From positions 1 to 64,000 of the IMG/VR virus record IMGVR_UViG_3300042147_000025: DNA of 64,000 nucleotides; one strand, given 5' to 3'. The translations under genes were made by a program, and so were the position numbers. Shown here piece after piece: positions 62-58,747 of the stretch. The notes under the pieces are model-generated. The model had not been told where the DNA came from, made no database searches, and saw only the letters and a list, made by a program, of their open reading frames with translations. Within the stretch, counting starts at the first letter, position 1, and the number at the start of each line of letters is the position of its first letter. The DNA comes from a virus.

Positions 62-127
62 CCACTTTAGTGCCACTTTAGTGCCACTTTAGTGCCACTT
101 TAGTGCCACTTTAGTGCCACTTTAGTG
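62..127. repeat. Tandem repeat, 6 x 11 bp (CCACTTTAGTG)
   Basis: Perfect copies start at 62, 73, 84, 95, 106 and 117. Confidence 0.97.
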
Positions 128-17016: not shown

Positions 17017-18137
17017 AGGAATTATGGTAAAAGCAAGAGATTGGGCAAAAGATGTAGAAGGCACTGATATTGAATTTATCGGAAGAGAGGGTAACTATCT
17101 TATCTGCCTTATCTGCTCAAAAGATGGATTTATATTTAAGCCATATAGGACAACGTGGCCTCCAACTAGACTCACGCCGGAAGTAACCTGTTGATCCAAC
17201 AGGTTACTTCAAATTTCTAGTAAGGAAATTGCATGGTGATAAATACAACCTTGATAAGGTGATCTACACAAAAGCCGACAGGAATATCATTGTAGGTTGT
17301 TCCATTCACGGTGATTTTAATATCAGAGCTGCAAATTTTAAGAGAGGAAAAGGATGTCCTCTTTGCTCTTATATGACTATTGGGGATAAGAACCGTGGCA
17401 GTAGAGAAGCCTTCCTAGAAAAAGCCAGAGAAATTCATGGGGATATTTACGATTACTCACTTGTTGAATATACTACTTCCAACGGGCAAATTAGTATCAT
17501 TTGTAGTATACATGGAATTTTTCAACAAGCTGCCTATAATCACTTGGTTGGCAAGGGCTGCTTAACTTGTGGACTTGAGAGGAGTAAACTATCTAGGGTG
17601 CTCAGTATAGAAACTGTCCTAGAAAGATTTACTGATGTTCACGAAGACAGGTATGACTACACTGATGTTGTTTACATAGGAGATGCCCATTCACCCCTTA
17701 AAATTGTATGTAAGGAACATGGAATGTTTTTACAAACATATGCAAACCACTACCACAATAAACAAGGATGTCCAGAATGTGCAAAAGAGTTTAGTGCTAG
17801 GTTGAGGTCAGGATTTATGAAAAGTGCTGATTCAAAAGACTACGCAAGTTTATACTTGATTGAGTGTAGTTCAGATGAAGAAGTATTTTTCAAGATTGGT
17901 ATAACAACAAAGCCGCTGAAAACTAGGTTTGCAGGACCGTCTACAATGCCATATGATTACGAAGTTAAATATCTGTTCATATCAGGAGGAGAACATATAT
18001 GGAATTTGGAAAGGTTGCTGCACTATGAGTACAAGGACCAGAAATATTTACCACTCCTAGAATTTGGAGGAAGATATGAATGTTTCAGTGAGATTGATGT
18101 TGACGAGTATAAGAAATTGGTCTACACTTTGGCATAG
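17006..18137 (+). pseudogene. Frameshifted homing endonuclease (repeated C..HG.F/GCP.C Zn modules plus GIY-YIG-like C-terminus)
   Basis: ORF 17006-17194 stops inside a perfect hairpin; another frame continues VDPTGYFKFLVRKLHGDKY into ORF 17229-18137; LYLIE...FKIGIT...GGRYECF. Confidence 0.7.
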
Positions 18138-34801: not shown

Positions 34802-35581
34802 ATGTTTAGATTTATCTATAAGACAACGAATAATTTGAATGGTATGTACTATATTGGCATGCATAGAACAGACAACTTAGAAGACGGGTATCTGGGGTCT
34901 GGTAGGCAACTACTAAAAGCTTTTGTTGAACAAGGGAGGTCTACATTCACAAAAGAGATTCTAGAGTTTGCTGAAACAGACGAAGAGCTTATGCTTTTAG
35001 AGAAACAATATGTAAATATAGATGTTGTAGAGGACAGTAATTCTTATAATATGACTACAGGAGGTGCTGGGAGGTTGTCATATGGAGAAAGCTGCAATTT
35101 CAGTGAAGAGGGACTAGAACGCCTGAGAAATAGTGGTAAACGTTATATAGGAGAGAATAACCCTTTTTATGGTAAGACACATACTGAAGAAACTCGTGAA
35201 ATTCTTTCCTTGAATGCCAGTAAGAAAGTGGGAGAATTAAACCCTTTCTTCGGGAAGACACATTCAGAGGAGTTTAAAAGAAAAGCTTCTGAGATGAGAC
35301 TAGGTAAAAATAAGAGCAACACACCGTCTATGGCGATAAGATCTTGGAACCAATCCACGGGATGGTGGTGTACACCCACAGGCTGCTACACCAGTGACAG
35401 AGATGCTGCCTTGTTTACAGAGATTGGTAGAAATTGCATTAGGGCTTGGTGCAAGAGCCCAGATAAAATTGTCAGGAAAAACTATCAAATTCCTGAACAT
35501 TACTGGGGTAAGACTTGGAAGGAGAATGGTTTTTACTTCCTACCTAAAATAAAGTTTGACATAGCTTTGAAAGAAGCCTAA
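34802..35581 (+). CDS. GIY-YIG homing endonuclease (Seg-like, NUMOD3 repeats)
   Basis: FIYKTTN...YYIGMH...YLGSG; two NPF(Y/F)GKTH(T/S)EE repeats. Confidence 0.88.
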   Translation: MFRFIYKTTNNLNGMYYIGMHRTDNLEDGYLGSGRQLLKAFVEQGRSTFTKEILEFAETDEELMLLEKQYVNIDVVEDSNSYNMTTGGAGRLSYGESCNFSEEGLERLRNSGKRYIGENNPFYGKTHTEETREILSLNASKKVGELNPFFGKTHSEEFKRKASEMRLGKNKSNTPSMAIRSWNQSTGWWCTPTGCYTSDRDAALFTEIGRNCIRAWCKSPDKIVRKNYQIPEHYWGKTWKENGFYFLPKIKFDIALKEA

Positions 35582-35620
35582 ACTACAGACCATAGGCGAA
35601 AGCTTGTGGTCTTTTTCTTT
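35556..35620 (+). promoter_or_regulatory. sigma70 promoter overlapping a terminator hairpin
   Basis: TTGACA-17-TAAACT (35556-35584); GACCATAGGC-GAAA-GCTTGTGGTC followed by TTTTT. Confidence 0.7.
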
Positions 35621-37638: not shown

Positions 37639-37891
37639 TCTCTTCATCCTCTTTCTTATCAAGAGTGGGTTGGTGTATTAGCCTACCAATTAGCCCCAAC
37701 AATCCAAACAAAATAGCTAAACTAATTACAAGCTTAAAGGCAAAATATACGTTTATAACACCAAGCACGGACAAGCCTGTTACAGATACGGCTTGCAGAA
37801 TGTTAGCTAAACTAAAAACTACAGAATAACTTTTCCAAAGCTTCTTCCAATTACCCACTAGAGATACTTTAGAAATGTTCTTCATTTTCAT
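37628..37891 (-). CDS. Putative holin
   Basis: WKKLWKSYSV followed by two TM segments and GRLIHQP; possible dual start MKM. Confidence 0.65.
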   Translation of the reverse strand: MKMKNISKVSLVGNWKKLWKSYSVVFSLANILQAVSVTGLSVLGVINVYFAFKLVISLAILFGLLGLIGRLIHQPTLDKKEDEENVQ

Positions 37892-38498
37892 CTCCCTCGG
37901 AGTGTTTATTTATGTAAGTAGAGTAAAGAATCCTAATCTTATTTTTAAACTCTTCTTCGGGGTGGTGCATTTTCATCGTATTACAAAGCTTACAACAAGG
38001 TCTAACATTATCCAGTGTATAACCTTTGTCAGAATCAACTCTATCCAAGCTATTATAAATATACTGACTATTTAATCTACTTCTGTCACTTACTGTAAGA
38101 ATTTGATGCTGGTAGACCATTGCAGGAGGTTCGTCGCAATAGTAGCAGTTACTGGACGTTAGCTCTTTAAAAACATCCAGATCAATTTCAAAAGCATAGT
38201 TAAACTTTTTTGCTCTTGTTTTATATACGCCAAACAGACGCTTTAATCCAGAGACTCCCGGATCTAAAAGTTTCTTGTTTGCCATCTTAACTTTTCCGTT
38301 TGCACTCCTGATGGCCGTAGAGATAGGACAACCATGTCCGCAAGTCTTACATGAAATTAAATGACTAGAGCCTTTTTCTACAATATTTCCACACTCACAT
38401 TGAATTTTAATGCGCATGCTGTCATTTACTTTATCGTAGAACTTCTCTAGAACTACATAGAATCTTTCACGAGTAAGATCAAGGTTATCAATGTCCAT
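37869..38498 (-). CDS. HNH-type homing endonuclease
   Basis: CECG, CYYC, LDRVDSDKGYTLDNVRPCCKLCNTMK. Confidence 0.8.
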   Translation of the reverse strand: MDIDNLDLTRERFYVVLEKFYDKVNDSMRIKIQCECGNIVEKGSSHLISCKTCGHGCPISTAIRSANGKVKMANKKLLDPGVSGLKRLFGVYKTRAKKFNYAFEIDLDVFKELTSSNCYYCDEPPAMVYQHQILTVSDRSRLNSQYIYNSLDRVDSDKGYTLDNVRPCCKLCNTMKMHHPEEEFKNKIRILYSTYINKHSEGDENEEHF

Positions 38499-41101: not shown

Positions 41102-41851
41102 TTAGATGAGCTGAGCATATTGCCCACCCAATGATAAATCACTTAAATCTCCGTAGCCTTTGGCATTCAGAGCACCTTGAAAACCAAAATAGTCTTCAGC
41201 AATAAACTCACCAAAATTGATTTTTACACCAATTGGCTTTGGAATAAATCTGGAGGGGTAGCCAGAAGAATAGGATGTATAAGTTAGAAGTACTTTCTCA
41301 AAAGAAGATAACTCTCTTCCTAACATCACAGTAACTTCAGCATTACCCTCCGCAACAACCAAGCTCATATCAATTCCAAATATGAATTGCATAAACTCTA
41401 TGAATTGGTTTGGGGTTACATTTGTATTATTCTTTACAATCTTAGCTTTAATGAACAATCGATATTGTTCATCTGTAAGCAGTGTATTCCCAGCTAGTGG
41501 ATTGTTGATGTCATAATAAGGACCACCAATAGCTGGGTTATCCAAGTCACCGTAAGATTGAGCATCTGGATAACCAACAAAAGCAAAGAACGTCAACAGT
41601 GCTGTATCAATAAGCTCTCTTGGTTGGCCTACAATATCACCAATAATATCTAATTGAGCACCAACAGCAGTATCAATAGAACGCTCTTGCATCAGTTGAC
41701 GGAAGACTTCTTGAAGCTCAATCTTTCCGCCAAGGAGGATTTGGAGGTACTTGTCGAACGTAGGGGCAGATTCTTGGCGAAACTGTTCAGTCGTTCTGGA
41801 GCGTGCAACAGAAAGGTAATCCTCAATATTGAACGGATTTAGTTCAGACAT
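41102..41851 (-). CDS. Baseplate wedge protein (DUF2612-like)
   Basis: IDTAVGAQLDIIGDIVG; L.DEQYRLFIKAKI. Confidence 0.75.
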   Translation of the reverse strand: MSELNPFNIEDYLSVARSRTTEQFRQESAPTFDKYLQILLGGKIELQEVFRQLMQERSIDTAVGAQLDIIGDIVGQPRELIDTALLTFFAFVGYPDAQSYGDLDNPAIGGPYYDINNPLAGNTLLTDEQYRLFIKAKIVKNNTNVTPNQFIEFMQFIFGIDMSLVVAEGNAEVTVMLGRELSSFEKVLLTYTSYSSGYPSRFIPKPIGVKINFGEFIAEDYFGFQGALNAKGYGDLSDLSLGGQYAQLI

Positions 41852-42737
41852 GAAAACTCCTAGGCATTAGATGGTCCATTTGCAGAACATCTTTAGTAAA
41901 TAGTTCTGTATTACCCACCCGCAGGACATTAACTCCTTTGGCCCTATATTCTTTAAACATTTTGAGAATGTTTGTTTCAGCCGCCCGAGCATCTTTACCG
42001 TTTTCAAATCTATATGAATAGAGCACAGTAATCTTTTTTAAATCACAAGGTTTAAATCTAGAAGTAACACCGAGATTAGTGATACCCACTTTCCAATAAG
42101 TTGTACCATTGTCATCAACTCTTAGGTAGTACAAATAACCTGGAAGTTGTGAAACAAAACCCCCTTTCTTACAATTTGAGCACCCACTACCGTAGATAAT
42201 ACTTGCTCCAATTGGATAAAAAAGTTGATTACATACTAGACAAAGACATTCTATTGGTGTGCTGTTGTTTACGTAATTACCCACCACTTTCACATCATGC
42301 TGGAACTCATCAAAGCATTTCTGTAATTTTTCTACCGAACCCTTAGCTTTTCCGCTGCACATAAGGCAGCCTGAGTACTGGAGAAGATTGGCTGTGGAAG
42401 CTTCCCATTCATAATCACAACACCGACAACGAGCTTTGATAGGCTCCTGACTTCCTTTGTAGTCAGAAACCAAATCAACGTTCCTATTATTATTGTCGAG
42501 GAGTTTTTGATAAGTTTCTTTTGTATATAAGTAAGTAGAGCAGCATGGACAACCCTTCCCACGTAGTAGGACGGAGGGCGTAGTAGGCCAACTATACTGA
42601 CAGACGTTGCAAACAACATCTAAAAACCCTGTGCGTGTTTTATACACACCTGTGATCTTTAAGGTTGGTCTTTTTTCAGACATTAAATGAAAAAAATCGG
42701 ATGCTATTTTTGCATTGTTTTCTTGTCTTTTACTCAT
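41844..42737 (-). CDS. Homing endonuclease with CxxC repeats and GIY-YIG-like C-terminus
   Basis: Three C..C...GC..C modules; YLYYLRV...WKVGIT...GNTELF. Confidence 0.7.
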   Translation of the reverse strand: MSKRQENNAKIASDFFHLMSEKRPTLKITGVYKTRTGFLDVVCNVCQYSWPTTPSVLLRGKGCPCCSTYLYTKETYQKLLDNNNRNVDLVSDYKGSQEPIKARCRCCDYEWEASTANLLQYSGCLMCSGKAKGSVEKLQKCFDEFQHDVKVVGNYVNNSTPIECLCLVCNQLFYPIGASIIYGSGCSNCKKGGFVSQLPGYLYYLRVDDNGTTYWKVGITNLGVTSRFKPCDLKKITVLYSYRFENGKDARAAETNILKMFKEYRAKGVNVLRVGNTELFTKDVLQMDHLMPRSFHV

Positions 42738-44571: not shown

Positions 44572-44645
44572 TTCACACCTCCTACGTCTTGTGCATACAG
44601 GAAAAACATGCTATATTTATTCCCTTAACTATTAGGAGAACTACC

Positions 44646-45200
44646 ATGATTTTTGATTTAAATTTTATTAATGAGTGCTTTGACGTTGATTTTTCAAAAG
44701 GGTTGCTGTCTTGGAAAGAGGATAGACCTACTAATCATTTCAGGACTCCGGGTGGTCACTCTTCTTGGAAGACTAAATCTTCATCAACGTCACCCCTCAC
44801 AAAGAACAGTAAAGGTTATCTTACTGTTGGTGTAACTTTTGAGGGTAACTATATAACTTATATACAACACAGGATCATCTATGCCTTGTTTCACGGTGAT
44901 GCCAATCCACCATTGATTGACCACTACAACAGGAATATCACAGATAATAGCATCAGCAACCTACGTCCCTCTTGTATGGCTGGTAATGCTAAAAATCGTA
45001 AAATGTCCAAGTTAAATACGTCTGGGATAACCGGTGTGGAATATAGAGTCAAACCAAGTGGCTATTACTTTTGGATAACAAATTCAGCAAAAGATGAAGG
45101 ACCAAAAGATATAGTTTTCCGTGATTTCTTTCTGGCTTGTTGCGAAAGAAAAGCTTGGGAATTGAAGAACGACTATACGGTAGAACATGGAAAATATTAG
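44646..45200 (+). CDS. HNH homing endonuclease, antisense to the late operon
   Basis: HRIIY...IDHYNRNITDNSISNLR; NTSGITGV; AGGAG RBS. Confidence 0.8.
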   Translation: MIFDLNFINECFDVDFSKGLLSWKEDRPTNHFRTPGGHSSWKTKSSSTSPLTKNSKGYLTVGVTFEGNYITYIQHRIIYALFHGDANPPLIDHYNRNITDNSISNLRPSCMAGNAKNRKMSKLNTSGITGVEYRVKPSGYYFWITNSAKDEGPKDIVFRDFFLACCERKAWELKNDYTVEHGKY

Positions 45201-45982
45201 TTTGTACTTACACCAGAAGTACCTGAACCCACTGTAACACCTAGATGCTTGTGAAGGTTTATATTTATTCCACTAAGTACATATGTGCCCGTTTGTGTAT
45301 AATTACCTACCTGAGTTATATTGCTTTGGTAGGTAATGTCTCCGATCCAAGTAGTATTTCCTACATCAACGGTCATTGTTTGCGCGTTTAAGTTAATGCT
45401 ATTTGAGGCATTAATAGTGGCATCCGAACAATTGATTACAACCGGTTGATTTGAAGTGTTAACTTCAATACTGCCGTCAACCTTTAGCCTAACTTCACAC
45501 TCTACACCGCCCAGATTTTGAAATAAAACAGTGTCTTTAGTATCGTGGGTCAGGGCATGTTTTGCTGGATTATTCACAGCAACACCGGGGGGTTGAATAC
45601 CCGGAAGAAAGATGGCGTCTGACTTATCCATCTTAGCGAAGTTCATTGGACTCGCTGGCCTACCATTCCCAACTTTCCAGCCATCCATATTCCTCATAGA
45701 GAACATTGCTGTACCAGTATCTCCAACTTCAATTGGAAAAGTGAAGCCAGCTTTCTTGGAGACTTGAAAGGATACAGGGACATTGCCGATTGTTGGACGT
45801 TCTGCTACTGTACCATCTTGCAGCTTTTGATTGATAGTCGGTTGGATATCTACAACCTGTCCAGCAAGACCATCACGCACTGCAACCACAATGCAAGGAA
45901 TAATAGTATAGATGTTTTGCATCTGGCTATCGAAGGAACTAACCATTGTACTTTGAATAGCAGCTACAGCTTCTGAACTCAT
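45197..45982 (-). CDS. Baseplate central spike (Gp138-like)
   Basis: VDIQP, FPIEVGD.G...FS.R, beta-repeat region, C-terminal HKH. Confidence 0.8.
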   Translation of the reverse strand: MSSEAVAAIQSTMVSSFDSQMQNIYTIIPCIVVAVRDGLAGQVVDIQPTINQKLQDGTVAERPTIGNVPVSFQVSKKAGFTFPIEVGDTGTAMFSMRNMDGWKVGNGRPASPMNFAKMDKSDAIFLPGIQPPGVAVNNPAKHALTHDTKDTVLFQNLGGVECEVRLKVDGSIEVNTSNQPVVINCSDATINASNSINLNAQTMTVDVGNTTWIGDITYQSNITQVGNYTQTGTYVLSGININLHKHLGVTVGSGTSGVSTN

Positions 45983-46878
45983 GAACCACCACCTTTTTGT
46001 ACAACTTTCTCTAGGCTAGTTGCACGTATCTCACTGTACCACCCTGAGCTGCGCCATCCACCAGAGTGACGTAATGATTCAACCTTAAGCCAGCCAGTAA
46101 TTAGGGTATCTTCAAGATAGATAATATCTCCCGCTCTAATATCAGGATTCAAAAGAATCTTCATCTGAATGCCGGGCTTCTTTACTTTATCTTTCTTAGA
46201 ACGTTGTCTATCACCAGAAACACGGTAAGGAGTTTCGATTAATCCTGTATACTTTGAGATGACATATGCAAGGTCAAAGTTTTCATTATTAGGACGACCT
46301 TTATCGTGTACGTAGACAACACCATCATCTAGTTGCCATTCACAACCATATTTCTCGCAGAACTCATCCATCATCTCTTTAGGGGTTCCGCTGAGAGGGT
46401 AGCCACCAATGATTGGGTTGTTTAAGTTGGTCCCGCTAACAACACCCCTGTCAGCCCCAATAGCTTTGACAAACTTCTGAACCACAACTTTTGGATCTTG
46501 TCCTTCTGGAACAAATTCAGAGAGGAGTTGATGATTGAGGTTTGTATATCCGCTTCCCATAGTGACTTGCGTAATCCTATCCGTACCTGACTTCCTTGTA
46601 GATACATGAGTCACCTGTCCGGCAAACAACCGCTTAGGTCCGCCAGTGTCTAGATAGCCAGCTTCGAACACAGCAGCCGGATAGTCGGTGTCTAGTAATT
46701 TAACGTGTTCATCAGAGAGGTTGTAGATTTCTATAGATGCGCTATTTGTCCGCTTTTTATTATCTGGACTTTTACTGATATCAAAAGTAACCTGAAGGTC
46801 TGTAATTTCTAATGCTTCGCCAGAACTATAGTCACCAATTATCAAGCGGTACTGCCTATTACGTTGTATAAGATCCAT
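45979..46878 (-). CDS. Baseplate hub protein
   Basis: N.ASIEIYNLS, EAGY, TGLIETP, LLNPDI. Confidence 0.75.
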   Translation of the reverse strand: MDLIQRNRQYRLIIGDYSSGEALEITDLQVTFDISKSPDNKKRTNSASIEIYNLSDEHVKLLDTDYPAAVFEAGYLDTGGPKRLFAGQVTHVSTRKSGTDRITQVTMGSGYTNLNHQLLSEFVPEGQDPKVVVQKFVKAIGADRGVVSGTNLNNPIIGGYPLSGTPKEMMDEFCEKYGCEWQLDDGVVYVHDKGRPNNENFDLAYVISKYTGLIETPYRVSGDRQRSKKDKVKKPGIQMKILLNPDIRAGDIIYLEDTLITGWLKVESLRHSGGWRSSGWYSEIRATSLEKVVQKGGGS

Positions 46879-46891
46879 TGATTACCCTTTA

Positions 46892-47651
46892 TCAGTAAGG
46901 CTCATAATCAAAAGAAATCAACTTAGTGTAAGCCTTTTGACAGAGGTTATCTTTGTAGTGATCCGCCAGAGAGCGTACTTTATTATTAACGTGAAGTCTT
47001 ACAGACTCAAAGGCATCAAACTTATTACCATAAGAACCAAGGCTTATTGCTTTACCGCCAACCGATGAAGTAGCGATAAACCTACCAGCACGAAGTTCAA
47101 CACCTTTTGGTAAATCAGGGTTTCCAGATATCTTTTTCGTGCGGAATATCACATTCAATTCTCTTGGGAGAAAGGTGAAAGGTGCATGTCTCTGGATTAT
47201 AATTTTTGTTATTGTGGACAAGTAAGTCTTTATCTAACTGCCAATTTGGGAGGTTAAATCCCGGTTGTTTGTTACACCATTCTGCAAACACTTGAAAATT
47301 TAACCAAGAGTCTACTACTTGACAGTCAACATACGACTGCAACTGATTCTTAGTGTCGTAACAACGGGCCAGCATTGCAGACCAAGTGTTGTACTCCTTC
47401 GTAATATTCCCTGTTCTACCGGCTGAATAAATACCCACACCTATAAACCCCTTTCCAAAAACCTGTGGCGAATTGGGATTCTTTACTTTCCCAGCCTGAA
47501 GCATGTGTGAGTAGGTTTTAGTTATAGTTCCATCTTCAAATTTCACGAGTATGTCTTGGCTTCCGTTGTATTCAACAACAGCACAATCACCACTAAAGTT
47601 TGTCTTGAATACATCACCAATAAATATTTTCTGTTTTGGACCTTTCATCAC
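46892..47651 (-). pseudogene. HNH-type homing endonuclease frameshifted by a 7-bp duplication
   Basis: WSAMLARCY, WLNFQVFAEW, LDKDLL...ETC; CACCTTT duplicated at 47171-47184; removing one copy gives ETCTFLPRELN. Confidence 0.85.
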
Positions 47652-47704
47652 AACCCCACATATTTAAATTGAGGTTAGATTGTAGCATCAAGTCGCAGTG
47701 AAAG

Positions 47705-48040
47705 TCAACTTTCTTCTGACCACAAATAAAACAAATTGTAATATTGATCAATAGAATCAGGATACACCTTATAAGGTTCACTAATTATATCTGCTTTTTC
47801 TTCCATCCAGATAAAACCTGTCAACGGAAAAATAGCGTAGTCCAAGAACATTGGATAATTAGGAACTAAAGCTTCCCCTAAGATGATTGGATTACTATCA
47901 GCGTCATAGAGATTTACAAAATATAACTTAGCTCTTTCATTGTAGACAAATTCAAAAATGTAAGAGTCGCCTTGAAAGGCAATGGTGTATGTATAATATG
48001 CACCACTGAACAAAGGCATTGCTATATATTTATCAGCCAT
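47705..48040 (-). CDS. Virion/baseplate protein
   Basis: 111-aa ORF at the usual position before the hub gene. Confidence 0.6.
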   Translation of the reverse strand: MADKYIAMPLFSGAYYTYTIAFQGDSYIFEFVYNERAKLYFVNLYDADSNPIILGEALVPNYPMFLDYAIFPLTGFIWMEEKADIISEPYKVYPDSIDQYYNLFYLWSEES

Positions 48041-48818
48041 TTTCCCTTGCCTTTCTTAGTGGGTCTGTGTCTTTAGGGGAATCACCAGTACCTACATCTT
48101 GTGGTGTACTATCTTGCTTACCTTTAGAGGCTTTACTTGAAGCTTTCTTTTTAAGAGAGTCTTGTACATCTTTTGGGATAGTGGTCTTCTTTAAGAAAGC
48201 AAAAGTCACCTGTTCAAAAGTAATATCACAATACAAACCATATCCAGTGTTTGGGTCTTCCTTAAAAGTAATCTTAGTCATTACAAGATTGTTGATTACT
48301 TTACGAAGCAGTGTGCTGTCATACTCAAACAAACGAACAAGTTGAATGCTGGGATCAAAGTTACCAGTCTTATCGTTGAAGACAACACCAGCAGTAAGAT
48401 CAATCAGAGCTTGTCTAATTTGTTCTAGAAGGTCAGCACGTCTGCTATCAACCACTACTTCCGGAGTACTATCAGATAGGAACTGGCCGATACTGTCTGG
48501 AATAAACTTCTTCAGGACACTTTGGTCTGTAGAGTTCACACTGACAGCATTAGGGGCTTGATTACTGTTGTATGGAGAGTTACCATCCAAGTCTTGGATT
48601 AGGTAAGTTCCAGTGGAAATGTCTACACCCGTAATTACAGCACCAATTGTAAAGATTGGATTCGCAGAAATATAGTGGTCAGTCACCAGTCCACCGGACG
48701 CAATTGGATGTTTTGTAACTTGCCCAGAATAATTTTGTGTATAAGAAGTTACCGCCGAGAGGTAAATAAAACCCCCGTCTTGGACTGATGAATCACCCCA
48801 CTCTATCGCTAATGACAT
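48033..48818 (-). CDS. Tail tube initiator/Dit-like baseplate protein
   Basis: VTKHPIASG..VTDH; follows the tape measure gene. Confidence 0.65.
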   Translation of the reverse strand: MSLAIEWGDSSVQDGGFIYLSAVTSYTQNYSGQVTKHPIASGGLVTDHYISANPIFTIGAVITGVDISTGTYLIQDLDGNSPYNSNQAPNAVSVNSTDQSVLKKFIPDSIGQFLSDSTPEVVVDSRRADLLEQIRQALIDLTAGVVFNDKTGNFDPSIQLVRLFEYDSTLLRKVINNLVMTKITFKEDPNTGYGLYCDITFEQVTFAFLKKTTIPKDVQDSLKKKASSKASKGKQDSTPQDVGTGDSPKDTDPLRKARENG

Positions 48819-49806
48819 ACTCAGTCCCTTTCATTAGACTACCATTAAATTTTTCATAAATTTCAACAATATCTTCTATGTTGTGTGGATAAGTAGTTTC
48901 ACTATAGCCATCAGGCAACAACTGCCTATCCACTACTCCGCAAGTTAATGTATTAATACACTCACGTTCTGCTGCCTTACAATCTGAAATATTCGGAAAT
49001 TTATAAACTTTGTGTAATACAACATCTAACCCAGAAACCCTTTGCTGCTGGGAAACACGGATTAAAGAATTATTAGAAATTCCAAACTTAATGGCAATGA
49101 TGTTATCGTTATCTTTGATTAAGTTGATGTAGGCTTCTGTTTGTCTTTGCTTTGCACAACCACAAGACCTATTCCCCTTCATCAGAGTAGCAGAACGAGC
49201 CTCTACATTCTGAAGACAGTCAGGGCAAAACACTTTCCAGTATGGTCTATGACCTTTAAAATCTTCTGTAGTACTTCTTGCAAAAGTAGTTCCTTCAGAA
49301 AAAGATCCCGTTGCAAAGAAGTCTCTGACAAACTCTTCATCAGGTTTAGATGCTCTCTTACCTACTGCCTCAAAGCGGCAACCGGGACAACCAACATTTC
49401 TATTTATGAAATTATTGATAATTCCACTTGACCAAATACCATGAGTTTTGCACTCAAGTGATAATTTAGTTTTTCTGTCTGTGAATTCACCAGCCCAGCC
49501 ATGAAATACATATCCGAGTTCACCTGCTTTTCTTTGACAAACTATCTTATAATATCTTTCATCTCTTCGGGCAGAAACTGAACATCCACACGGTACTTGC
49601 CCCAGTATCAAACTAGACTTGATTGACCTAAACAGTCCATCTCCATATAATTCTGGGTCTTTTTCACAAATACTACACTTTACAACGTACATTTTGGATG
49701 TAGCGCTTTTACCAGACCAGCCAATAACTTCAAGTTGGTTTTCCTTGCCAAATCTGGTGCCAACAAATTCGTCAGTTTCAATTTTATCAAAATCACTGTA
49801 GTACAA
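48793..49806 (-). CDS. Homing endonuclease with Zn modules and GIY-YIG-like C-terminus
   Basis: CSIC...PCGC, C.THG...GCPGC, IKFGIS...DGYSET; TTG start after AGGAG. Confidence 0.7.
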   Translation of the reverse strand: MYYSDFDKIETDEFVGTRFGKENQLEVIGWSGKSATSKMYVVKCSICEKDPELYGDGLFRSIKSSLILGQVPCGCSVSARRDERYYKIVCQRKAGELGYVFHGWAGEFTDRKTKLSLECKTHGIWSSGIINNFINRNVGCPGCRFEAVGKRASKPDEEFVRDFFATGSFSEGTTFARSTTEDFKGHRPYWKVFCPDCLQNVEARSATLMKGNRSCGCAKQRQTEAYINLIKDNDNIIAIKFGISNNSLIRVSQQQRVSGLDVVLHKVYKFPNISDCKAAERECINTLTCGVVDRQLLPDGYSETTYPHNIEDIVEIYEKFNGSLMKGTEYVISDRVG

Positions 49807-49864
49807 TTTAAACACTCCTAAATTAAAGTCTGAATATTGTACTACAGCTTTCTGAAAGAATCAA

Positions 49865-51742
49865 CTATTGTTTTACAGGGAATTGGACATTCACTTGGTC
49901 AAAGGATTGAACAAACATATTTGCTACAGCTTCACCAATAGCTTGAGCTTGTGCATTTGCATCCATGCCTTGGAGCGTTGAGCCATCCACATTCACAACG
50001 ATGTCGATCTGATTACTGTTACTCACAATACCCATTGCTTTATCTTCAGCAGCAGCTTTAGCCATGTCCGCTTGTTGTGAGTCATACCCAGCAGCATCTT
50101 GGTAATAGGGGGAGGTTGGGTCATCATAAACTGCACGACCTCTCTCACGAGCTTTGTTCATGTTAAAGCCGGTGTTGTTTATGATATCCCCAACAATGGC
50201 TGCTGGCGATGCATACTCTAGACCAAACAGATTAGCTTTTTCAGTGGAACTATTACTTGTCTCGGAAGTCGGAAGAGACCCGCTTTTCCACTTCTGGAAC
50301 TCAGCAATAGCATTCATGATAGAAGCAATTTCTCTTGCTGTAGCTTCTAGAGTTGGGAGGAAGTCAAACTTGATCGTGGAGATATCAGTGAAGATTTGTT
50401 TGATATCAGACCAGTCTTTCTTGAGTTGGTTGGTCTTGTCCACGCCTAACCAATCCGCCACAACACTATCTTTACCCTCAAGAGCACGAATAAAAGATTG
50501 CGGGAATAGGAGAAGGTCATCAGCCCATTTTGTTGCTTCGTTAAACCCTTCTGCAAGCCTCTTAACTAGGTCTCCACTTTCATTCAAGCCTGCCGCGAGG
50601 GTACGGAAAATACGAGCAAAACCCTCTTCTACGCCTGCGTTTGATGCCAATACGGCCATGTCATTTACAGAGTTTTGATAACGAGCTTGCTCAGCTTGGG
50701 ATGCTTGGGATGCTGTACCTAGAGCCCCGCCCTGATTAGCTCGTTGAGAAGCAGCAGCGCCTGCATAAGTGAGGATATCACTGGTTACTTTGCCTTTCTT
50801 CATATCAGCCAAAAGCTGTTGAATGGCTTCAGCACCAGTCTTATTACCGCCAATCTTTGCTTGATATGCTTGAGCAAACAGTGCCGTACCACCCGGCAAT
50901 GCCTCTGCAATTTGCCCAGTAAGTTCCTCAGACATCAACTTACCCTTACCCGCAACTTGAGACAATGCTCTGAACAAACGGTTCTGAGTAGTTTTATCGA
51001 GTTTGTTGACGCGGGCCAGTTCAGCAAATCCACTAAAAACCTTCTGGCTTTGTTTTAAGCCAATACCCGATCCAGTAAGACCTGATATTAGTTTATTATA
51101 GTCGCCAGATGCCTCAAGGAAATTGAACCCCACACGGTTCGCTTCAGACCTCAAATATTGGAAAGAATCTGAGCCTTGTTGTGCTGTTCCCCCGGCTTGC
51201 TGTACAACCGCTGACGTTTGCAACTGGGCAGAGACGACTTCTTGGTTACGCCTATTTAATGCCCCGAGACCATAGCCCCCTAAACCCAGTGCAAGTGCGG
51301 GACCAAGTAGACTGGGCATACCTCGGGAACGTCCAAGGCCAGCGGCAGCTCCTGTAACAACAGCCTCACCTGTCCTCCCTCTGGGGGTAACAACAGTAGG
51401 TGTATGTCCCGGAACAACTTGAGGAACAATCCTCATAGGGTGAGACATACCTGCACGGGCCATCGCAACAGCAACAGTTTGATTTAAGGCAGCTTGATTG
51501 ACATTGAACTTATTAATATCAAAGACAGTACGATTGCTCGCCATATCTAAGGCGTTACCAAGGACTCTCTCAAGCTTTCGTTGGTCAACCGTAAAGTTAC
51601 CAATGCCAAAATTTAAGGAGTTACCAAAACCTTTAAATTTATTTAGCTTCTTCTCAAGAGTAGCTAATGCTTTGTCAACCTTTTTTAAACCTCTTGTGTC
51701 AACATCAAAACCGATACTGGCGAAGTACTTGGCGATCTGCAA
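49865..51742 (-). CDS. Tape measure protein
   Basis: ALSQVAGKGKLMSEEL.GQIAEALPG tape-measure domain; Ala/Gly-rich. Confidence 0.88.
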   Translation of the reverse strand: MQIAKYFASIGFDVDTRGLKKVDKALATLEKKLNKFKGFGNSLNFGIGNFTVDQRKLERVLGNALDMASNRTVFDINKFNVNQAALNQTVAVAMARAGMSHPMRIVPQVVPGHTPTVVTPRGRTGEAVVTGAAAGLGRSRGMPSLLGPALALGLGGYGLGALNRRNQEVVSAQLQTSAVVQQAGGTAQQGSDSFQYLRSEANRVGFNFLEASGDYNKLISGLTGSGIGLKQSQKVFSGFAELARVNKLDKTTQNRLFRALSQVAGKGKLMSEELTGQIAEALPGGTALFAQAYQAKIGGNKTGAEAIQQLLADMKKGKVTSDILTYAGAAASQRANQGGALGTASQASQAEQARYQNSVNDMAVLASNAGVEEGFARIFRTLAAGLNESGDLVKRLAEGFNEATKWADDLLLFPQSFIRALEGKDSVVADWLGVDKTNQLKKDWSDIKQIFTDISTIKFDFLPTLEATAREIASIMNAIAEFQKWKSGSLPTSETSNSSTEKANLFGLEYASPAAIVGDIINNTGFNMNKARERGRAVYDDPTSPYYQDAAGYDSQQADMAKAAAEDKAMGIVSNSNQIDIVVNVDGSTLQGMDANAQAQAIGEAVANMFVQSFDQVNVQFPVKQ

Positions 51743-51756
51743 TGTTTATTACTCCG

Positions 51757-52325
51757 TCATTTCGGTTTATTTTTATCAGCTTTAGCTTTATCAAATGCTT
51801 GCTTACTTAAAGCATCGTACACATCAAGGAATTCAAGGAGCTTCAGCATTTGTCGTGTAGAGTATTTCCACTCCATTTCAGCAGCCAATTCAAGACCACC
51901 TTTCTCATGCATGGCGATCCTATAGATACTCCAGTGCTGAGAGAAAGTTTTATCAATTTCTTTTTCTAGCTGTGTAGCCAATCTTCCCGACTCAGACTTT
52001 TCAGTTACTCTTCTGAATCGGGTGCCTGAAAAAGCTCTTCGAAGTTAAAATTCAGCACCTCTTTATAGAGTTTATTGAGGTGTGCATACTTGCGAGAAAA
52101 GGATACATCAAAAGACTTTTCAGTGATCTGCATGTTCTCCTTGGAAACATAGTTACAAATGATTTGTTTCATTTGACTAAGATCCGCCTTACCTTCATCA
52201 ATAGCTGCCTGATGCTTTTCAATAAACATCAAACCTTTAGTTGCAGGCATTGCGGTTACAAGGTAATCAATATCATCAACTGTAATAGTTGTTTGTTCAA
52301 GTACTTCAAATTTTGGAGCTGCCAT
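51757..52325 (-). CDS. Tail assembly chaperone pair (G = 52005-52325; GT via -1 frameshift to 51757)
   Basis: CTT TTT C at 52034-52028; the -1 frame is open into ORF 51757-51981; downstream 11-bp stem. Confidence 0.75.
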
Positions 52326-52349
52326 TTATTTTATCTCAGAAAATACAAA

Positions 52350-52847
52350 TTAAAAAATGTTATCAAAGAAGTTACCAGCTTCGCTGAGTGCTCTATCAAA
52401 GATGTCAGTTGCAGGCTTAGCGTTACCAGACACAACATAGGTGCTCGTGGACTGCAAGAAGAATTCCCAATTACGATACTCAAACTGCCCGGAATACGTA
52501 GATGTAGGGTACCCAGTAATATACGCCTCATTGGATGAGAACACACTACGACCTGAGTTATCCTTCAACATTAATTCAATTCGTCCAGTGCCTTCAGTTA
52601 AATCAAGTTCATGGATATACGAAAGTACATCGTTTCCCTGAGAGGTTTGGAGGAGAGAGATGGTGATAGTGGCAGAGGTATCGACATTAGGGACTCGTGT
52701 GTTCTTACCACGAATACCGCGAATAACAGTAAACCCTTTCACTGTTCTGCTAATGCTGATACTCTGCCAGCCAGTTAGTTGATAACCACCAACAGTTAAG
52801 ATTACGTCACTAGGGCTGTATGTATTCACAGTAAAGGAATTAGCCAT
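52350..52847 (-). CDS. Tail tube-like protein (DUF3277-like)
   Basis: TYSPSDV, TITISLLQTS.GND.L. Confidence 0.7.
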   Translation of the reverse strand: MANSFTVNTYSPSDVILTVGGYQLTGWQSISISRTVKGFTVIRGIRGKNTRVPNVDTSATITISLLQTSQGNDVLSYIHELDLTEGTGRIELMLKDNSGRSVFSSNEAYITGYPTSTYSGQFEYRNWEFFLQSTSTYVVSGNAKPATDIFDRALSEAGNFFDNIF

Positions 52848-53344
52848 TACAGCACTCCTTCTGCAATTGAGGACGAACCGGATGCAAGATTAATCAAATC
52901 TTGGAGAATACCACTAGCATCTTGGTTGCTACCGACGTTGATAACCGCTTGTGAAGAGCGAAGTATCCAAGTACGACTATCAAAGCTAGTACTTTGTACC
53001 ATACTTGGAATCCCTTCAATCCATGTGTTGGTTGAAAAGAACAAGTCTGTACCAGATAAATCTTTTATAAACAGCGGGAATTTCCCCATTTGTGTGAACT
53101 CATCTAACTGCCACAACTTAGTAAGGATATCATTAGATGTAGAGCCACGGTGGAACGTTAGCGAAATAGTGTATGTCTGACTATTCGTATACAGTCTAGA
53201 AATAGATCCGTCTGCTGTTTCTGTTGTACCGAACGGAACCTTGTCTTTGGTGATGCTGATAAATGTTCCGTCAGCAAATCCGCCGAGCGGAATACCAAAA
53301 GCCAAACAGTTCACATCATCTGGTAGGTAATTCGCAATTGTCAT
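52847..53344 (-). CDS. Tail tube-like protein (DUF3277-like)
   Basis: NYLPDDV, GFADGTFISI. Confidence 0.7.
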   Translation of the reverse strand: MTIANYLPDDVNCLAFGIPLGGFADGTFISITKDKVPFGTTETADGSISRLYTNSQTYTISLTFHRGSTSNDILTKLWQLDEFTQMGKFPLFIKDLSGTDLFFSTNTWIEGIPSMVQSTSFDSRTWILRSSQAVINVGSNQDASGILQDLINLASGSSSIAEGVL

Positions 53345-53398
53345 GTAATCTCCTTAAATTATAGGGGCTTAGATCTTAGTCGTCACCCCTAATTCCAA

Positions 53399-53929
53399 TT
53401 AAGGACTAACCTTCCACCGCTCATCAACAGTGCCACCAAGTGCTTCCATTGCAGCAACTTCTGATGGAGCAAGAGGTGTGTTACCACCAATAAAGATGTC
53501 ACTACCAAACAGGTAGATGCCCCAATCACGAGTACCGAACTCAGAGCCAAAAGAGGCATTAGCTGGTGCTACAATTACTGCACTATTACTGGAGGCTACT
53601 GTTTGACCACTCATGTCCTTCATGGTGCAGTTGAACACATAACGGTTGTCCGGTACATTAGCATCAGCGATTTGAAGTTGTTGGAACAACGAGTTAGACG
53701 GCGAGCCTTGGTGTAGAGTGATAGTTACGTTCATCGCAGTTACACGACGCTTAACCCTCGCAAAACTGTTGTCGCCAACACCCTGATAAGGCGTGGAACT
53801 TGGAGTAATCCGATCCATGCTGACAAACGTACCATCAGCAAAACCTGTTACTCGGTGTACGAAATCTCCTTTCGACAAAATGATAGTAAAATCATCCGGA
53901 AGGTAGTTCGCAATAAAATTGTCACTCAT
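53399..53929 (-). CDS. Tail tube protein
   Basis: NYLPDDF, GFADGTFVS; first structural gene after the sheath. Confidence 0.75.
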   Translation of the reverse strand: MSDNFIANYLPDDFTIILSKGDFVHRVTGFADGTFVSMDRITPSSTPYQGVGDNSFARVKRRVTAMNVTITLHQGSPSNSLFQQLQIADANVPDNRYVFNCTMKDMSGQTVASSNSAVIVAPANASFGSEFGTRDWGIYLFGSDIFIGGNTPLAPSEVAAMEALGGTVDERWKVSP

Positions 53930-54627
53930 AAATTAATTGCCTCTGTATTAATGTGGGAATCTTCCCTAATTGTTTTATTTGGGCGATCCCCATAGACTTG
54001 TTCAGAAACATCGTCATATGCAAAAGCCGCTTCTAATTCTGTTTTAAAAGATTTTCTTAATTTACAAGTTCCGTCTACAAATAACTTTGCCCTGAAGTTA
54101 CCGTGATGCATACTTACACCAATACTTTCACAAGCGCTGTCTTTTCGTTTTCGTCTGTTATGGCAATTAACAGATCTTGTCACCCAACTGCAGTTTTCTT
54201 TGGTGTAGTTACCGTTAGTATCTTTTCGGTCTAGTTCCAAACCTTCTACATAGTGCTCTGACATATCATTGTAAAATGATTCAAAGTCAACCCAAGAAGG
54301 TTGGTAACTAATACCCCGACCACCGTAGTCTTCAAACTTATAGGCTTTTGGGTTATCGCATCGGACCTTCATACCAGCCCAAACTCCATATAGTGGACTA
54401 GAGCTTAATCCATGAGTTATGAACTGTGAACCGTCCTTTGCACACCCACATGTGATTACTTTACCAGAAACCAAGTCTACTAGATTTACAGGTTTAATAG
54501 GGGAACCACACTCACATTGAACATTCACAAATCTACGACGCCTTTTAGAGACAGGCTTCATATAAGTTTCAGAAACAGTGACTAGAGACGAGAATTTGCT
54601 GCCAATTGGTAAATCTTTGTTTTTCAT
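53926..54627 (-). CDS. HNH-type homing endonuclease with AP2-like C-terminus
   Basis: CECG, TCGC, W.GMK.RC...YGGRGI, LDRKDTNGNYTKENC.W. Confidence 0.85.
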   Translation of the reverse strand: MKNKDLPIGSKFSSLVTVSETYMKPVSKRRRRFVNVQCECGSPIKPVNLVDLVSGKVITCGCAKDGSQFITHGLSSSPLYGVWAGMKVRCDNPKAYKFEDYGGRGISYQPSWVDFESFYNDMSEHYVEGLELDRKDTNGNYTKENCSWVTRSVNCHNRRKRKDSACESIGVSMHHGNFRAKLFVDGTCKLRKSFKTELEAAFAYDDVSEQVYGDRPNKTIREDSHINTEAINL

Positions 54628-54685
54628 AGAACCTCCCAAATAAAATGATTTTTATCATATCACTCAAAAGGTTCTATGTAAAGCT

Positions 54686-55969
54686 CTATACAGAAAGGTA
54701 GAAATTGATGTCTACCGAGCGAATCGAGCCTTGCAAACGGGCGCGGATAACGAACACACCAGCAGCACGTTGAGCACGAAGAGTTGCGGGAATACTCAAA
54801 ACTGGTGGGGTAGAAATTGTCCATCCAGAGTCAATCAGACCATTACTCTCAGCAAGAGAACAAACAGCACGGATCTCATTTTCTACAATCAAAAGGCCCG
54901 GATCAGTCATTGGGATTTTAAGGCTGTTGATGATTCGGAAGTAGATCCCTTCCTGCAATCTTGCCTTTAACCAGTCCTTGCCAATCTGGACATCGATTGG
55001 TTTTGTATCAAACATGTTACCGTCTTGGAAAATGTCAACACCACCTTTACGGCGGTAAAAGTTCCACGATTTAGCACGCAAATTGACAACTTGAGTAGAG
55101 CTAAGGATGCTGCGAGTAACACCGTTTGCACGCTTGAAATCCCAGTCATTAGCACCCGGAGTCACAGCCAACTGACTACCAATCCATGCAGCTTCCGGAT
55201 ATTCAGTCGCGGCGGTGCCGGAGTAAACACCAAAAGTACGACTTGCAGACTTAGCATTAAGTTTATAACCAATATCAGTAATACCAGTCGTTGGTGCTAC
55301 AGTATCAGCCGAGGACAGACCATAAATCTTATCCATTGCTTGGATTGTATCAGACAGAGCTTCTTGTTCAGCAACTACCTGTGTTTCAGCAGTGAGTGCA
55401 TACCAGACGTCATTGTCTGCATCAACTGCAAGAAGTGCATCAGGCCAAGTTTCGGTGGCAGTGTTTACACCAACAAGGTTGGTAGAAGTTGTAACACTCC
55501 AAGCAGTACCGAGTACAGTGGTTGTAAGAATTAGTGTGGTTGTACCAGTGACAGTAATGCCGGTAGGAGAACCGATAGCAGCTTTCAAACCAGTTACAAT
55601 ACTGGTTGCAGTCGCACCGACACCAGAGGTAAAGGTATAAACCACATCATTAAGTGTTACAGTGTATGCAGTGCTGTCCGCTACAGTAGGTGTGAAAGTA
55701 ACACTATCTACTTGCCGACGGCCAATAATGACAGAAGGGGGGATAGCCCCAATTACACCCGACTGACCAAACAGCTTACTAGCCATAACATAAGCTTTAT
55801 CTGTGGTGGCAAAGTCTGCACCAACCTCAGTAATGCTAGCGTATGAGCGTGCTCTGTCAGCAAAGTTAGTAAATGTAGCAAGCACCAATGGGATTGCGAA
55901 GGAAGCAGTAGCGATAGCAGTAGTTTGGTCAGTTATGACCACATTTACCACGTCGTTAAGATCGCTCAT
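54686..55969 (-). CDS. Contractile tail sheath protein (DUF3383-like)
   Basis: PEAAWIG...PG...W.FK...GV; IDV..G.DWL..RLQE; KIP.TD.G. Confidence 0.85.
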   Translation of the reverse strand: MSDLNDVVNVVITDQTTAIATASFAIPLVLATFTNFADRARSYASITEVGADFATTDKAYVMASKLFGQSGVIGAIPPSVIIGRRQVDSVTFTPTVADSTAYTVTLNDVVYTFTSGVGATATSIVTGLKAAIGSPTGITVTGTTTLILTTTVLGTAWSVTTSTNLVGVNTATETWPDALLAVDADNDVWYALTAETQVVAEQEALSDTIQAMDKIYGLSSADTVAPTTGITDIGYKLNAKSASRTFGVYSGTAATEYPEAAWIGSQLAVTPGANDWDFKRANGVTRSILSSTQVVNLRAKSWNFYRRKGGVDIFQDGNMFDTKPIDVQIGKDWLKARLQEGIYFRIINSLKIPMTDPGLLIVENEIRAVCSLAESNGLIDSGWTISTPPVLSIPATLRAQRAAGVFVIRARLQGSIRSVDINFYLSV

Positions 55970-58252: not shown

Positions 58253-58699
58253 TTAAAATGTGCAGTTAATAAACAAAGTTTCACCAGCAGCATGACAACT
58301 ATCACATCCACAACCTGTCTCACAACAAGCTGCTTCTCTACAGATATCCCCATCACAAACTTCGATGTTCATGAGCTTGCTTGGACAACTGTTAGCAGAC
58401 CAAGGCATCAACCCCATAGGAATGAGTACTGTAGGATTATTAATGAAGTTACCAAGCGCCGCGATGTAGTTCTTAGCATAGTCGTTCCAAACTTCTAGGT
58501 CGCCTGTGGATTCTCTGGTATTATATCCAGCAATAGTAAACGAGGCAGAAATTGCAGCCATTCGAGCGGCTTGATACACATTTTGATTATTCAAGTCTAA
58601 GAATTGCTGAATTTCCTCCTCACTGTAGATGGGGTAGAACGGATTATTCGGGGTGTTGCCTATGAGCAAATTTACCTGCTCAACGGGTGTAAGGGCCAT
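58253..58699 (-). CDS. Head-tail adaptor with Cys-rich C-terminus
   Basis: V.LLIG....SEEEIQQFLD; position after the capsid genes. Confidence 0.6.
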   Translation of the reverse strand: MALTPVEQVNLLIGNTPNNPFYPIYSEEEIQQFLDLNNQNVYQAARMAAISASFTIAGYNTRESTGDLEVWNDYAKNYIAALGNFINNPTVLIPMGLMPWSANSCPSKLMNIEVCDGDICREAACCETGCGCDSCHAAGETLFINCTF

Positions 58700-58747
58700 G
58701 GCCACTCCTACATATATGAGGAGGGCAGACAAGCTGCCCCTTTATAC

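Follow-up and report, generated by a model that had tools for sequence, protein, structure and literature searches.

Host-type promoters within start-codon hairpins: putative insulated expression cassettes for homing endonucleases in the late operon of an Ounavirinae-like phage

The stretch of DNA analysed here, positions 1 to 64,000 of the IMG/VR virus record IMGVR_UViG_3300042147_000025 (hereafter the window), carries homing endonuclease genes (HEGs) among the structural genes of a phage late operon. Two of them, named (a) and (b), and about one third of the HEGs in related late operons are probably self-contained, self-insulating expression cassettes, as judged from RNA folding models and comparative sequence analysis. 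The original prediction, made from the window sequence, had assigned to four HEGs, (a) to (d), a sigma70-like promoter and an inverted repeat pairing the promoter region with the ribosome-binding site (RBS) or the start codon. All four genes were confirmed as homing endonucleases by PHROG and Pfam matches. The hexamers, spacings and repeats were present where they had been located, and the promoters scored above the 99.95th percentile of a position weight matrix (PWM). The RBS-hiding hairpin was upheld for (a) and (b), the top two of the 181 called genes; those of (c) and (d) were at chance level.

In the proposed mechanism, a leader of 58-83 nucleotides would contain a promoter for the host RNA polymerase with a -35 box and usually an extended -10 element, TGnTAnnnT. 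The spacer or the -10 region of this promoter would serve at the same time as the 5' arm of a hairpin, while the 3' arm would be formed by the Shine-Dalgarno (SD) sequence and the start codon of the nuclease gene. The abundant read-through mRNA of the operon would contain both arms and keep the nuclease start locked (15-28 kcal/mol). Transcripts from the modest own promoter would begin in the loop or on the 3' side of the hairpin, lack the 5' arm and be translatable (2-7 kcal/mol). The own promoter, rather than the very strong transcription of the structural genes, would determine the nuclease dose, and such a cassette could be inserted between any two late genes without overproduction of a DNA-cutting enzyme. 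The extended -10 promoters are possibly active throughout infection.

Promoter and hairpin in cassettes (a) and (b)

HEG (a) (53926..54627, minus strand) codes for an HNH/AP2-type nuclease of 233 amino acids (phrog_374, E=5.6e-55). It is situated downstream of the tail sheath gene (54686..55969, minus strand; phrog_205, E=2.3e-94), which is the source of the read-through RNA into the cassette, and its stop codon overlaps the start of a tube gene (53929). Promoter, hairpin, SD sequence and AUG are combined in the leader (54625..54685, minus strand). The -35 box TTTACA (54682-54677), three nucleotides past the sheath stop codon, is followed by a 17-nucleotide spacer that doubles as the 5' arm of the hairpin, by the extended -10 element TGaTATGAT (54662-54654), the SD sequence GGGAGG (54637-54632) and the AUG (54627-54625). 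The 10-bp perfect complement originally described for this leader exists, but the actual hairpin is longer: it has 19+5 bp, extends from 54678 to 54625 and spans the -35 box to the AUG. With a minimum free energy (MFE) of -26.3 kcal/mol it is an outlier in stability (z = -8.5; none of 200 shuffled sequences was equally stable). G-U pairs favour the sense strand over the antisense strand, -26.3 versus -19.7 kcal/mol, and a covariance model scored the leader at ~75 bits in sense versus 28-29 bits in antisense orientation. A family for this hairpin was not found in Rfam, where the sole match was sub-threshold and miRNA-precursor-like.

HEG (b) (48793..49806, minus strand) has a TTG start codon and encodes a CapR-domain endonuclease of 337 amino acids (PF21817, E=1.9e-35; phrog_681, E=2.7e-61). 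It follows the tape-measure gene (49865..51742, minus strand; PF20155 and phrog_2335) and shares 26 nucleotides with the start of a Dit-like gene. In its leader (49795..49864, minus strand), the -35 box TTGATT (49864-49859) is abutted by the tape-measure stop codon. The -10 box TACAAT (49841-49836) is held in the 5' arm of a 13-bp stem (49848-49836 with 49807-49795), and the 3' arm covers the TTG start and codons 2-4. The MFE of the hairpin is -21.2 (z = -3.6), and again none of 200 shuffles was as stable. Antisense inside HEG (b), at 49623-49651 on the plus strand, a near-consensus promoter TTGACC-17-TATAAT (PWM score 14.5, joint best in the genome) faces the start region and the leader of this gene; it may give rise to an antisense RNA or be a chance occurrence.

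The accessibility of the translation start was calculated for all 181 called genes as opening energy, the free energy required to expose positions -14 to +5 in a context of 100 nucleotides. The own transcripts were modelled to start 5-9 nucleotides past the predicted -10 box; for (a) the predicted start is at ~54648-54646, in the loop or on the 3' side. In the long leader, 20.3 and 15.8 kcal/mol are needed to open the start regions of (a) and (b), the two highest values among the 181 genes; from the predicted own starts, the costs were 6.0 and 3.8 kcal/mol. As a uniform control, a leader of 70 nucleotides was compared with one of 22 nucleotides for every gene. The long-minus-short difference was 14.2 kcal/mol for (a) and 12.1 kcal/mol for (b), again ranks 1 and 2, at a median of 0.8 kcal/mol. 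Hence for (a) and (b) the folding predictions agree with the original view that read-through RNA contains both arms and that the cassette's own transcript starts past the 5' arm; this view failed for (d), whose orientation is opposite to that of the operon.

Two other functions were considered for the hairpins and rejected: an intrinsic terminator, because no U-tract follows, and a protein operator, because pairing is preserved despite sequence variation and the G-U pairs are specific to one strand.

The sigma70 PWM scores were 10.7 for (a), 10.8 for (b), 13.2 for (c) and 9.6 for (d), all above 9.3, the 99.95th percentile of genome positions on both strands. A generic consensus scan of the region yielded 34 promoter-like sites where 39.8 +/- 6.4 were expected. 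There was no excess; the placement of such sites is informative, their number is not.

Recurrence and transfer of the leader in related loci

A search with the sheath protein retrieved 49 IMG/VR loci with 55-88% identity. About half of them had an open reading frame (ORF) of 250-306 amino acids at the sheath/tube junction, the rest a gap of 11-31 nucleotides. The ORFs belong to two unrelated families, GIY-YIG enzymes (13 loci) and HNH-AP2 enzymes, the family of HEG (a) (7 loci). Nearly all of the HEG leaders at this junction have a -35 box, a 17-nucleotide spacer forming the 5' arm, a -10 box in apical position and a 3' arm consisting of SD sequence and start codon. Predicted opening costs were 15-28 kcal/mol for the long and 2-7 kcal/mol for the short form of the related leaders, and 10-17 of the 17 bases of the start region were paired. 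In 19 of 25 related leaders, every base that pairs with the start region is located 5' of the transcript start as predicted. The arms vary yet stay complementary, e.g., AGAACCU/AGGUUCU, AGAGCCU/AGGCUCU, GCAGCCU/AGGCUGC, AAACCCC/GGGGUUU and CAAACACC/GGUGUUUG. A second subtype (L032/33/35, L050, L004, L022) has the 5' arm 2-3 nucleotides past the -10 box, with the start site inside the arm. Further instances belong to CapR-type HEGs at different sites (L011) and to second HEGs within intron-like inserts of L043, L046 and L050. The predicted recurrence in unrelated nuclease families was supported for GIY-YIG, HNH-AP2 and CapR-type enzymes, including covariation of the stems.

For a count over all gene classes, the genome and 50 related loci were combined to a set of 1,049 usable genes; HEGs were labelled in two BLAST rounds starting from known HEGs, and promoter score and opening-energy difference were calculated per gene. 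A PWM score >=9 together with a difference >=8 kcal/mol was found for 23 of 67 HEGs and for none of 982 other genes (Fisher 6e-30). This contrast held at every pair of thresholds tried; at >=7 and >=8, it was 24/67 versus 1/982, the exception being a gene for a protein of 115 amino acids.

The check by folding and covariation that the original prediction had suggested came out in its favour as regards (a) and (b). In eight leaders that could be aligned in register, 89% of the cells were paired. Changes on both sides of a pair were present in 13 cells versus 4.6 +/- 1.8 in shuffles, and none of 500 shuffles reached 13. The covariation score was 0.376 versus 0.13-0.19 in slid registers. A covariance model of these eight leaders recovered leaders outside the seed, at the same junction in L020, L028, L042 and L002 and elsewhere in L011, L043 and L046. 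At 80% identity, the 25 positive leaders collapse into 16 clusters. When 16 leaders were aligned with MAFFT, without recourse to a promoter model, the only invariant columns were a T of the -35 box and TG-n-TA---T. These are the positions most important to an extended -10 sigma70 promoter, and the remainder drifts under a pairing constraint. The leader promoters are of the host sigma70 type, with a -35 box TTGACn or TTTACA at 16-18 nucleotides and usually the TGn of an extended -10 element (11 of 16 clusters); the distance from the -10 box to the start codon is constant at 26-37 nucleotides.

A blastn search with the leader against cultured phages gave noise only. In the viral_contigs database, the proteins of HEG (a) and HEG (b) led to no relatives, and the exact sequence of the 3' arm had 0 hits. 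In the cultured phage KIL3, the homologue of HEG (a) is promoterless with a leader of 11 nucleotides, and the sheath/tube endonuclease is located in an intron-like structured region of 290 nucleotides (L052 133-423). The HEGs of Pseudomonas phage vB_PsaM_M1 (phage M1) lack the design. In L043, L044, L046 and L050, the sheath match ends at residue 328 and an insert of 2.4-2.7 kb follows (e.g., L043 3928-6633), with a highly structured leader of 285 nucleotides (-96 kcal/mol) and one or two HEGs; this insert in the sheath gene is probably a group I intron.

The leader is part of the insert. Phage M1 has no gene at the sites of (a), (b) and (c), with junctions of 2-34 nucleotides, and many IMG/VR loci are also empty at these three sites. 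Contigs from two other plant-associated metagenome studies, otherwise 95-99% identical to the window, join position 53920 to 54687 via 40 unrelated bases and contain neither the ORF of HEG (a) nor its leader of 58 nucleotides; other metagenome contigs omit ~48650-49865, i.e., HEG (b) with its leader. Since relatives without the HEG lack gene and leader together, promoter and hairpin come with the insert.

A single leader type precedes unrelated nucleases. Leader (a) shares 72-76% identity with its counterparts in L007, L048 and L009, which is the same level as the backbone of these loci, where sheath DNA is 73-75% and tube DNA 65-70% identical to the window. These three loci encode GIY-YIG enzymes, unrelated to the HNH-AP2 enzyme of HEG (a), and HNH-AP2 homologues elsewhere have leaders unrelated to leader (a). 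A contig of run X2 agrees with the window over the 3' arm, the ATG and the next two codons; from there on it has CYLYKIVNKI, the GIY-YIG N-terminus of L048. These sequence relations are suggestive of a resident module behind which nucleases are exchanged. Taken further, the leader could be a transferable dock of an extended -10 host-type promoter and an RBS-locking hairpin that stays at the hot-spot junction while GIY-YIG and HNH-AP2 genes are swapped in. The expression window of any such gene would then be governed by the RNA polymerase of the host, independent of the late operon and perhaps ahead of it, as a T4 switch with exchanged temporal classes. We regard this extended version as conceivable but rather doubtful.

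Timing, rival functions and weaker cassettes

The same anatomy has been read as a temporal switch, the inverse of the one in T4: a sigma70-type promoter active only early would give early nuclease synthesis, and late read-through RNA would be silent during packaging. The host-type promoters with their -35 box, unlike T4 late promoters, and the position of the cassettes within the structural operon are compatible with this reading, whose anatomy is that of the insulated cassette. However, nothing indicates that host-type promoters are confined to the early phase in this phage. The structural and packaging operon itself appears to be headed by a sigma70-like promoter, TTGACT-18-GATTAT, and the step from sigma70-like to early is not supported. 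A genome-wide search for a repeated phage-specific promoter motif of the single-subunit RNA polymerase type found only an 11-bp terminal tandem repeat. Furthermore, the HEG promoters form, by sequence, a separate extended -10 subclass, usually with a weaker -35 box. Among ~27 intergenic sigma70-like candidates in the genome, TGn was present only at HEGs (a), (c) and (d) and at one doubtful site, and none of the strong early-region promoters (TTGACA-17-TAnAnT; roughly 20 predicted) has it. Extended -10 promoters depend less on -35 contacts, so the HEG promoters need not follow an early shut-off and could outlast it. The second premise, that homing is possible early, is undercut by the T4 controls, which place HEG expression in the middle or late phase, in step with the machinery for repair and replication, and allow efficient homing (PMC2988022). 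On balance an early switch seems unlikely.

The closeness of the leaders to the preceding gene suggests another function. In agreement with the original prediction, the -35 box lies 3 nucleotides from the upstream stop codon in (a) and abuts it in (b), whereas in (c) the two overlap. The 5' arm begins 4-9 nucleotides past the stop in (a) and in about half of the related leaders, within reach of a terminating ribosome. In translational coupling, the start would be closed unless a ribosome finishing the upstream gene, such as sheath or tape measure, unwinds the 5' arm; nuclease would be made at a small, fixed fraction of the structural protein, and the promoter would be secondary. Yet the other leaders are 13-49 nucleotides away from the stop, beyond the reach of such a ribosome, so coupling cannot be general. 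In (a), too, no more than the 4-7 basal pairs would come apart, and ~15 bp over the SD sequence would remain. The invariant sigma70 -35 and TGnTAnnnT columns are also left unexplained. We therefore rate coupling as improbable.

Still less probable, in our estimation, is a hairpin that serves mainly the phage or gene shuffling, as a site for RNase III or other processing, as a 3'-stabilizing element between sheath and tube messages, or as a homology module like the PeSLs of T4-type phages. The (a)-type stem of ~24 bp would suffice for RNase III, near-identical leaders stand before unrelated nucleases, one contig switches to a GIY-YIG ORF at codon 3-4, and this fits a PeSL-type module (PMC2839356). 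However, HEG-less relatives live with a junction of 11-31 nucleotides and no hairpin, hence it is dispensable to the phage; the 3' arm always covers the SD sequence and start codon of the nuclease, which would be needed neither for processing nor for recombination, and the missing U-tract speaks against termination of the message. RNase III processing and recombination may be additional rather than alternative roles of the leader.

The remaining two HEGs of the original prediction are weaker cases. HEG (c) (46892..47648, minus strand) is an HNH gene divided between two overlapping ORFs, 47115-47648 and 46892-47221, which are in different frames and match positions 172-295 and 294-383 of the phrog_953 profile; it is probably a frameshifted, decaying gene, or else one that needs a frameshift. 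Its leader (47646..47708, minus strand) has a strong promoter, TTGACT-18-TGcTACAAT (47708-47679), the fourth best PWM score in the genome, with the -35 box overlapping the TGA stop of the plug gene. The hairpin is a weak 8-bp stem with two G-U pairs (47677-47670 with 47658-51) whose 5' arm begins 2 nucleotides past the -10 box. HEG (d) (44589..45200 including the promoter, plus strand; gene 44646-45200 with ATG at 44646) encodes an HNH_3 nuclease (PF13392, phrog_99) behind the promoter TTGTGC-17-TGcTATATT (44589-44617) and an imperfect 9-bp hairpin with one mismatch and one G-U pair (44620-44628 with 44632-44640). Because (d) is transcribed from the plus strand, opposite to the late operon, it cannot be part of late read-through mRNA.

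For both genes, we consider it probable that the promoters are real and the small inverted repeats are chance occurrences or decayed remnants devoid of regulatory effect. Against shuffles, the folds have z-scores of -0.15 for (c) and +0.49 for (d), i.e., chance level. In opening energy, (c) ranks eighth of 181 and (d) is near the genome median (5.3 kcal/mol), and their long-minus-short differences rank 12th and 18th of 181. That (c) is split and probably dead and that (d) is present in no read-through RNA points in the same direction. The counterargument comes from the second leader subtype: the topology with a 5' arm 2-3 nucleotides past the -10 box that pairs with the SD sequence is strong in the loci of this subtype and recurs at the (c)-homologous site of L006 (promoter score 13.3). 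The sites (c), (d) and that of L006 have a weak form of this topology, and (c) and (d) may be weak members of the subtype.

Several points weigh against the reading of (a), (b) and their relatives as insulated cassettes. All energies were calculated in silico and ignore ribosome traffic and co-transcriptional folding. The thresholds for the gene count were chosen after (a) and (b) had been seen, and the loci are kin, so that the counts are not independent; the 16 leader clusters are the fairer number. Two thirds of the HEGs in these loci do not have the design, and in the window the HEGs 41844-42737 and 37869-38498 are promoterless and overlap the upstream gene. In (b), the SD sequence AGGAG (49819-49815) lies in the weakly paired interior of the hairpin, and the locked part is the start codon. 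Finally, the design is approached by one non-HEG gene, the 115-amino-acid gene (66156-66503) before the large terminase gene, the sole one with a similar, weaker arrangement. Its leader (genome 66504-66637, minus strand; L053 2504-2637) has TTGACT-18-GATTAT and a UCUCUC/GAGAGA stem over the SD sequence, and its long-minus-short difference of 9.4 kcal/mol is the third largest.

Genome context and relation to known phage systems

The complete phage genome of 93,120 bp (40.8% G+C), of which the window is the first 64 kb, originates from a rhizosphere metagenome. It belongs to an Ounavirinae-like myophage; the tail sheath protein is 49% identical to that of phage M1, a member of the Ounavirinae. 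Among cultured phages, a megablast search with a 12-kb region gave zero matches, and a search of sequencing runs listed no RNA run with this phage. The structural and lysis genes are on the minus strand from ~66.6 to 36.4 kb, in the order large terminase, portal, protease, capsid, sheath, three tube paralogs, tape measure, baseplate, fibres and lysis. At least 13 HEGs were detected in the window by PHROG and Pfam profiles, of the HNH (phrog_953, 374, 99, 59), CapR/phrog_681 and GIY-YIG-like families. By sequence, those at sites (a), (b) and (c) have the two marks of free-standing HEGs, membership in a nuclease family and presence or absence between conserved neighbours.

Several further elements were observed in this genome. 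Two strong sigma70-like promoters are located at the 3' ends of early-region HEGs, TTGACG-17-TACACT (18100-18128, plus strand) in HEG 17229-18137, facing the DNA polymerase gene, and TTGACA-17-TAAACT (35556-35584, plus strand) in HEG 34802-35581, facing an ORF of 155 amino acids; this recalls those HEGs of T4 in which promoters for host genes downstream are embedded. The tube1/tube2 spacer (53345-53398, minus strand) contains a GGGG...CCCC hairpin followed by a T-rich run, kept in nearly all relatives and probably an attenuator or terminator past the major tube gene. A sigma70-like promoter, GTGACG-17-TATAAT, before the tube paralog 52847-53344 was rejected, as the spacer of the relatives has no conserved promoter; the promoter-like sequence there is probably incidental. 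The leader of gene 58253-58699 (58700-58747, minus strand) forms two hairpins, the second (CUCCU...AGGAG) over the SD sequence, and has no promoter; the opening energy of 12.9 kcal/mol is the third highest in the genome. An early protein of 427 amino acids had no Pfam match and so offers no clue to late transcription. The 11-bp unit CCACTTTAGTG is repeated in tandem at both genome ends (window 62-127, genome 93055-93120), either as a terminal repeat or iteron array or as an assembly overlap of a circularly permuted genome.

The closest precedent is experimental. For the T-even HEGs I-TevI along with I-TevII, I-TevIII, segB and Aeh1 mobE, the RBS is concealed by a hairpin on upstream transcripts, and a promoter within the structure gives a transcript unable to form the hairpin (Gott 1988; Gibb & Edgell 2007/2009, reviewed in PMC2988022). 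Cassettes (a) and (b) with their relatives share three traits with them: a hairpin over SD sequence and start codon on the read-through RNA, predicted for (a) and (b) and not for (c) and (d); an own transcript without the 5' arm, at sequence level, with the -10 box apical in (a) and in the 5' arm in (b); and a design that serves both GIY-YIG and HNH nucleases. The arrangement had been described as the inverse of that of I-TevI. This has to be corrected: the logic of (a) and (b) is that of T4 I-TevI, segB and mobE, executed within a late operon by means of a host-type promoter with an extended -10 element, and only promoter class and operon context differ. The freeing promoter in T4 is a late one (TATAAATA, no -35 box) or a middle one, here it has a host-type -35 box and an extended -10 element; the silent transcripts in T4 are early and middle messages of nucleotide-metabolism genes, here they are the structural-operon message. 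Unlike the T-even HEGs, the present cassettes reside in an Ounavirinae-like phage, have a leader common to unrelated nucleases and are predicted from sequence.

Other systems share single features. The PeSLs of the T4-type phages RB49 and phi1 are intergenic modules of stop codon, -35, -10, SD sequence and ATG with a stem-loop overlapping a sigma70-like promoter; they flank accessory genes, with which they were suggested to move, and would supply homology for the exchange of genes (PMC2839356, PMC4122927). Their stem-loops, however, are short GGGG...CCCC terminators without the SD sequence, situated in early hyperplastic regions before ORFans (PMC2839356, PMC4122927), whereas here the 3' arm consists of SD sequence and start codon, the stems are AU- and GU-rich, a U-tract is absent and the downstream genes are HEGs of a late operon. 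In the T4 late genes soc, e, 49 and others, long transcripts are blocked and a shorter one from a promoter inside the structure is translated (PMC2988022), but these are phage genes with T4 late promoters and not mobile nuclease cassettes. Autorepression of I-TevI likewise uses a regulatory sequence overlapping the nuclease's own promoter (PMC2988022). In that case the operator is a protein-bound mimic of the homing site; here, the free drift of the sequence with preserved complementarity and strand-specific G-U pairs argues for an RNA element and not a protein site.

Thus, the T4 logic and mobile promoter/stem-loop cassettes, the PeSLs, were known already. Within the literature and Rfam searched, four aspects appear to be new: the implementation with a host-type extended -10 promoter, the site between Ounavirinae-like structural genes, the near-exclusive link to HEGs and the use of one leader for unrelated nucleases.

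If the cassettes act as proposed, control of HEGs by a promoter inside an RBS hairpin would not be peculiar to T4 but a recurrent solution, rebuilt with host-type promoters in another myophage lineage. It would account for how nuclease genes can reside between sheath and tube, the structural genes with the highest expression, and yet not be overproduced. The design is almost diagnostic of HEGs in this clade and may serve as an annotation signature for mobile cassettes, and as a compact part of 60 nucleotides that combines promoter and insulator it would lend itself to testing and reuse. The shared leader behind which unrelated nucleases are found would offer a handle on the replacement of HEGs at hot spots.

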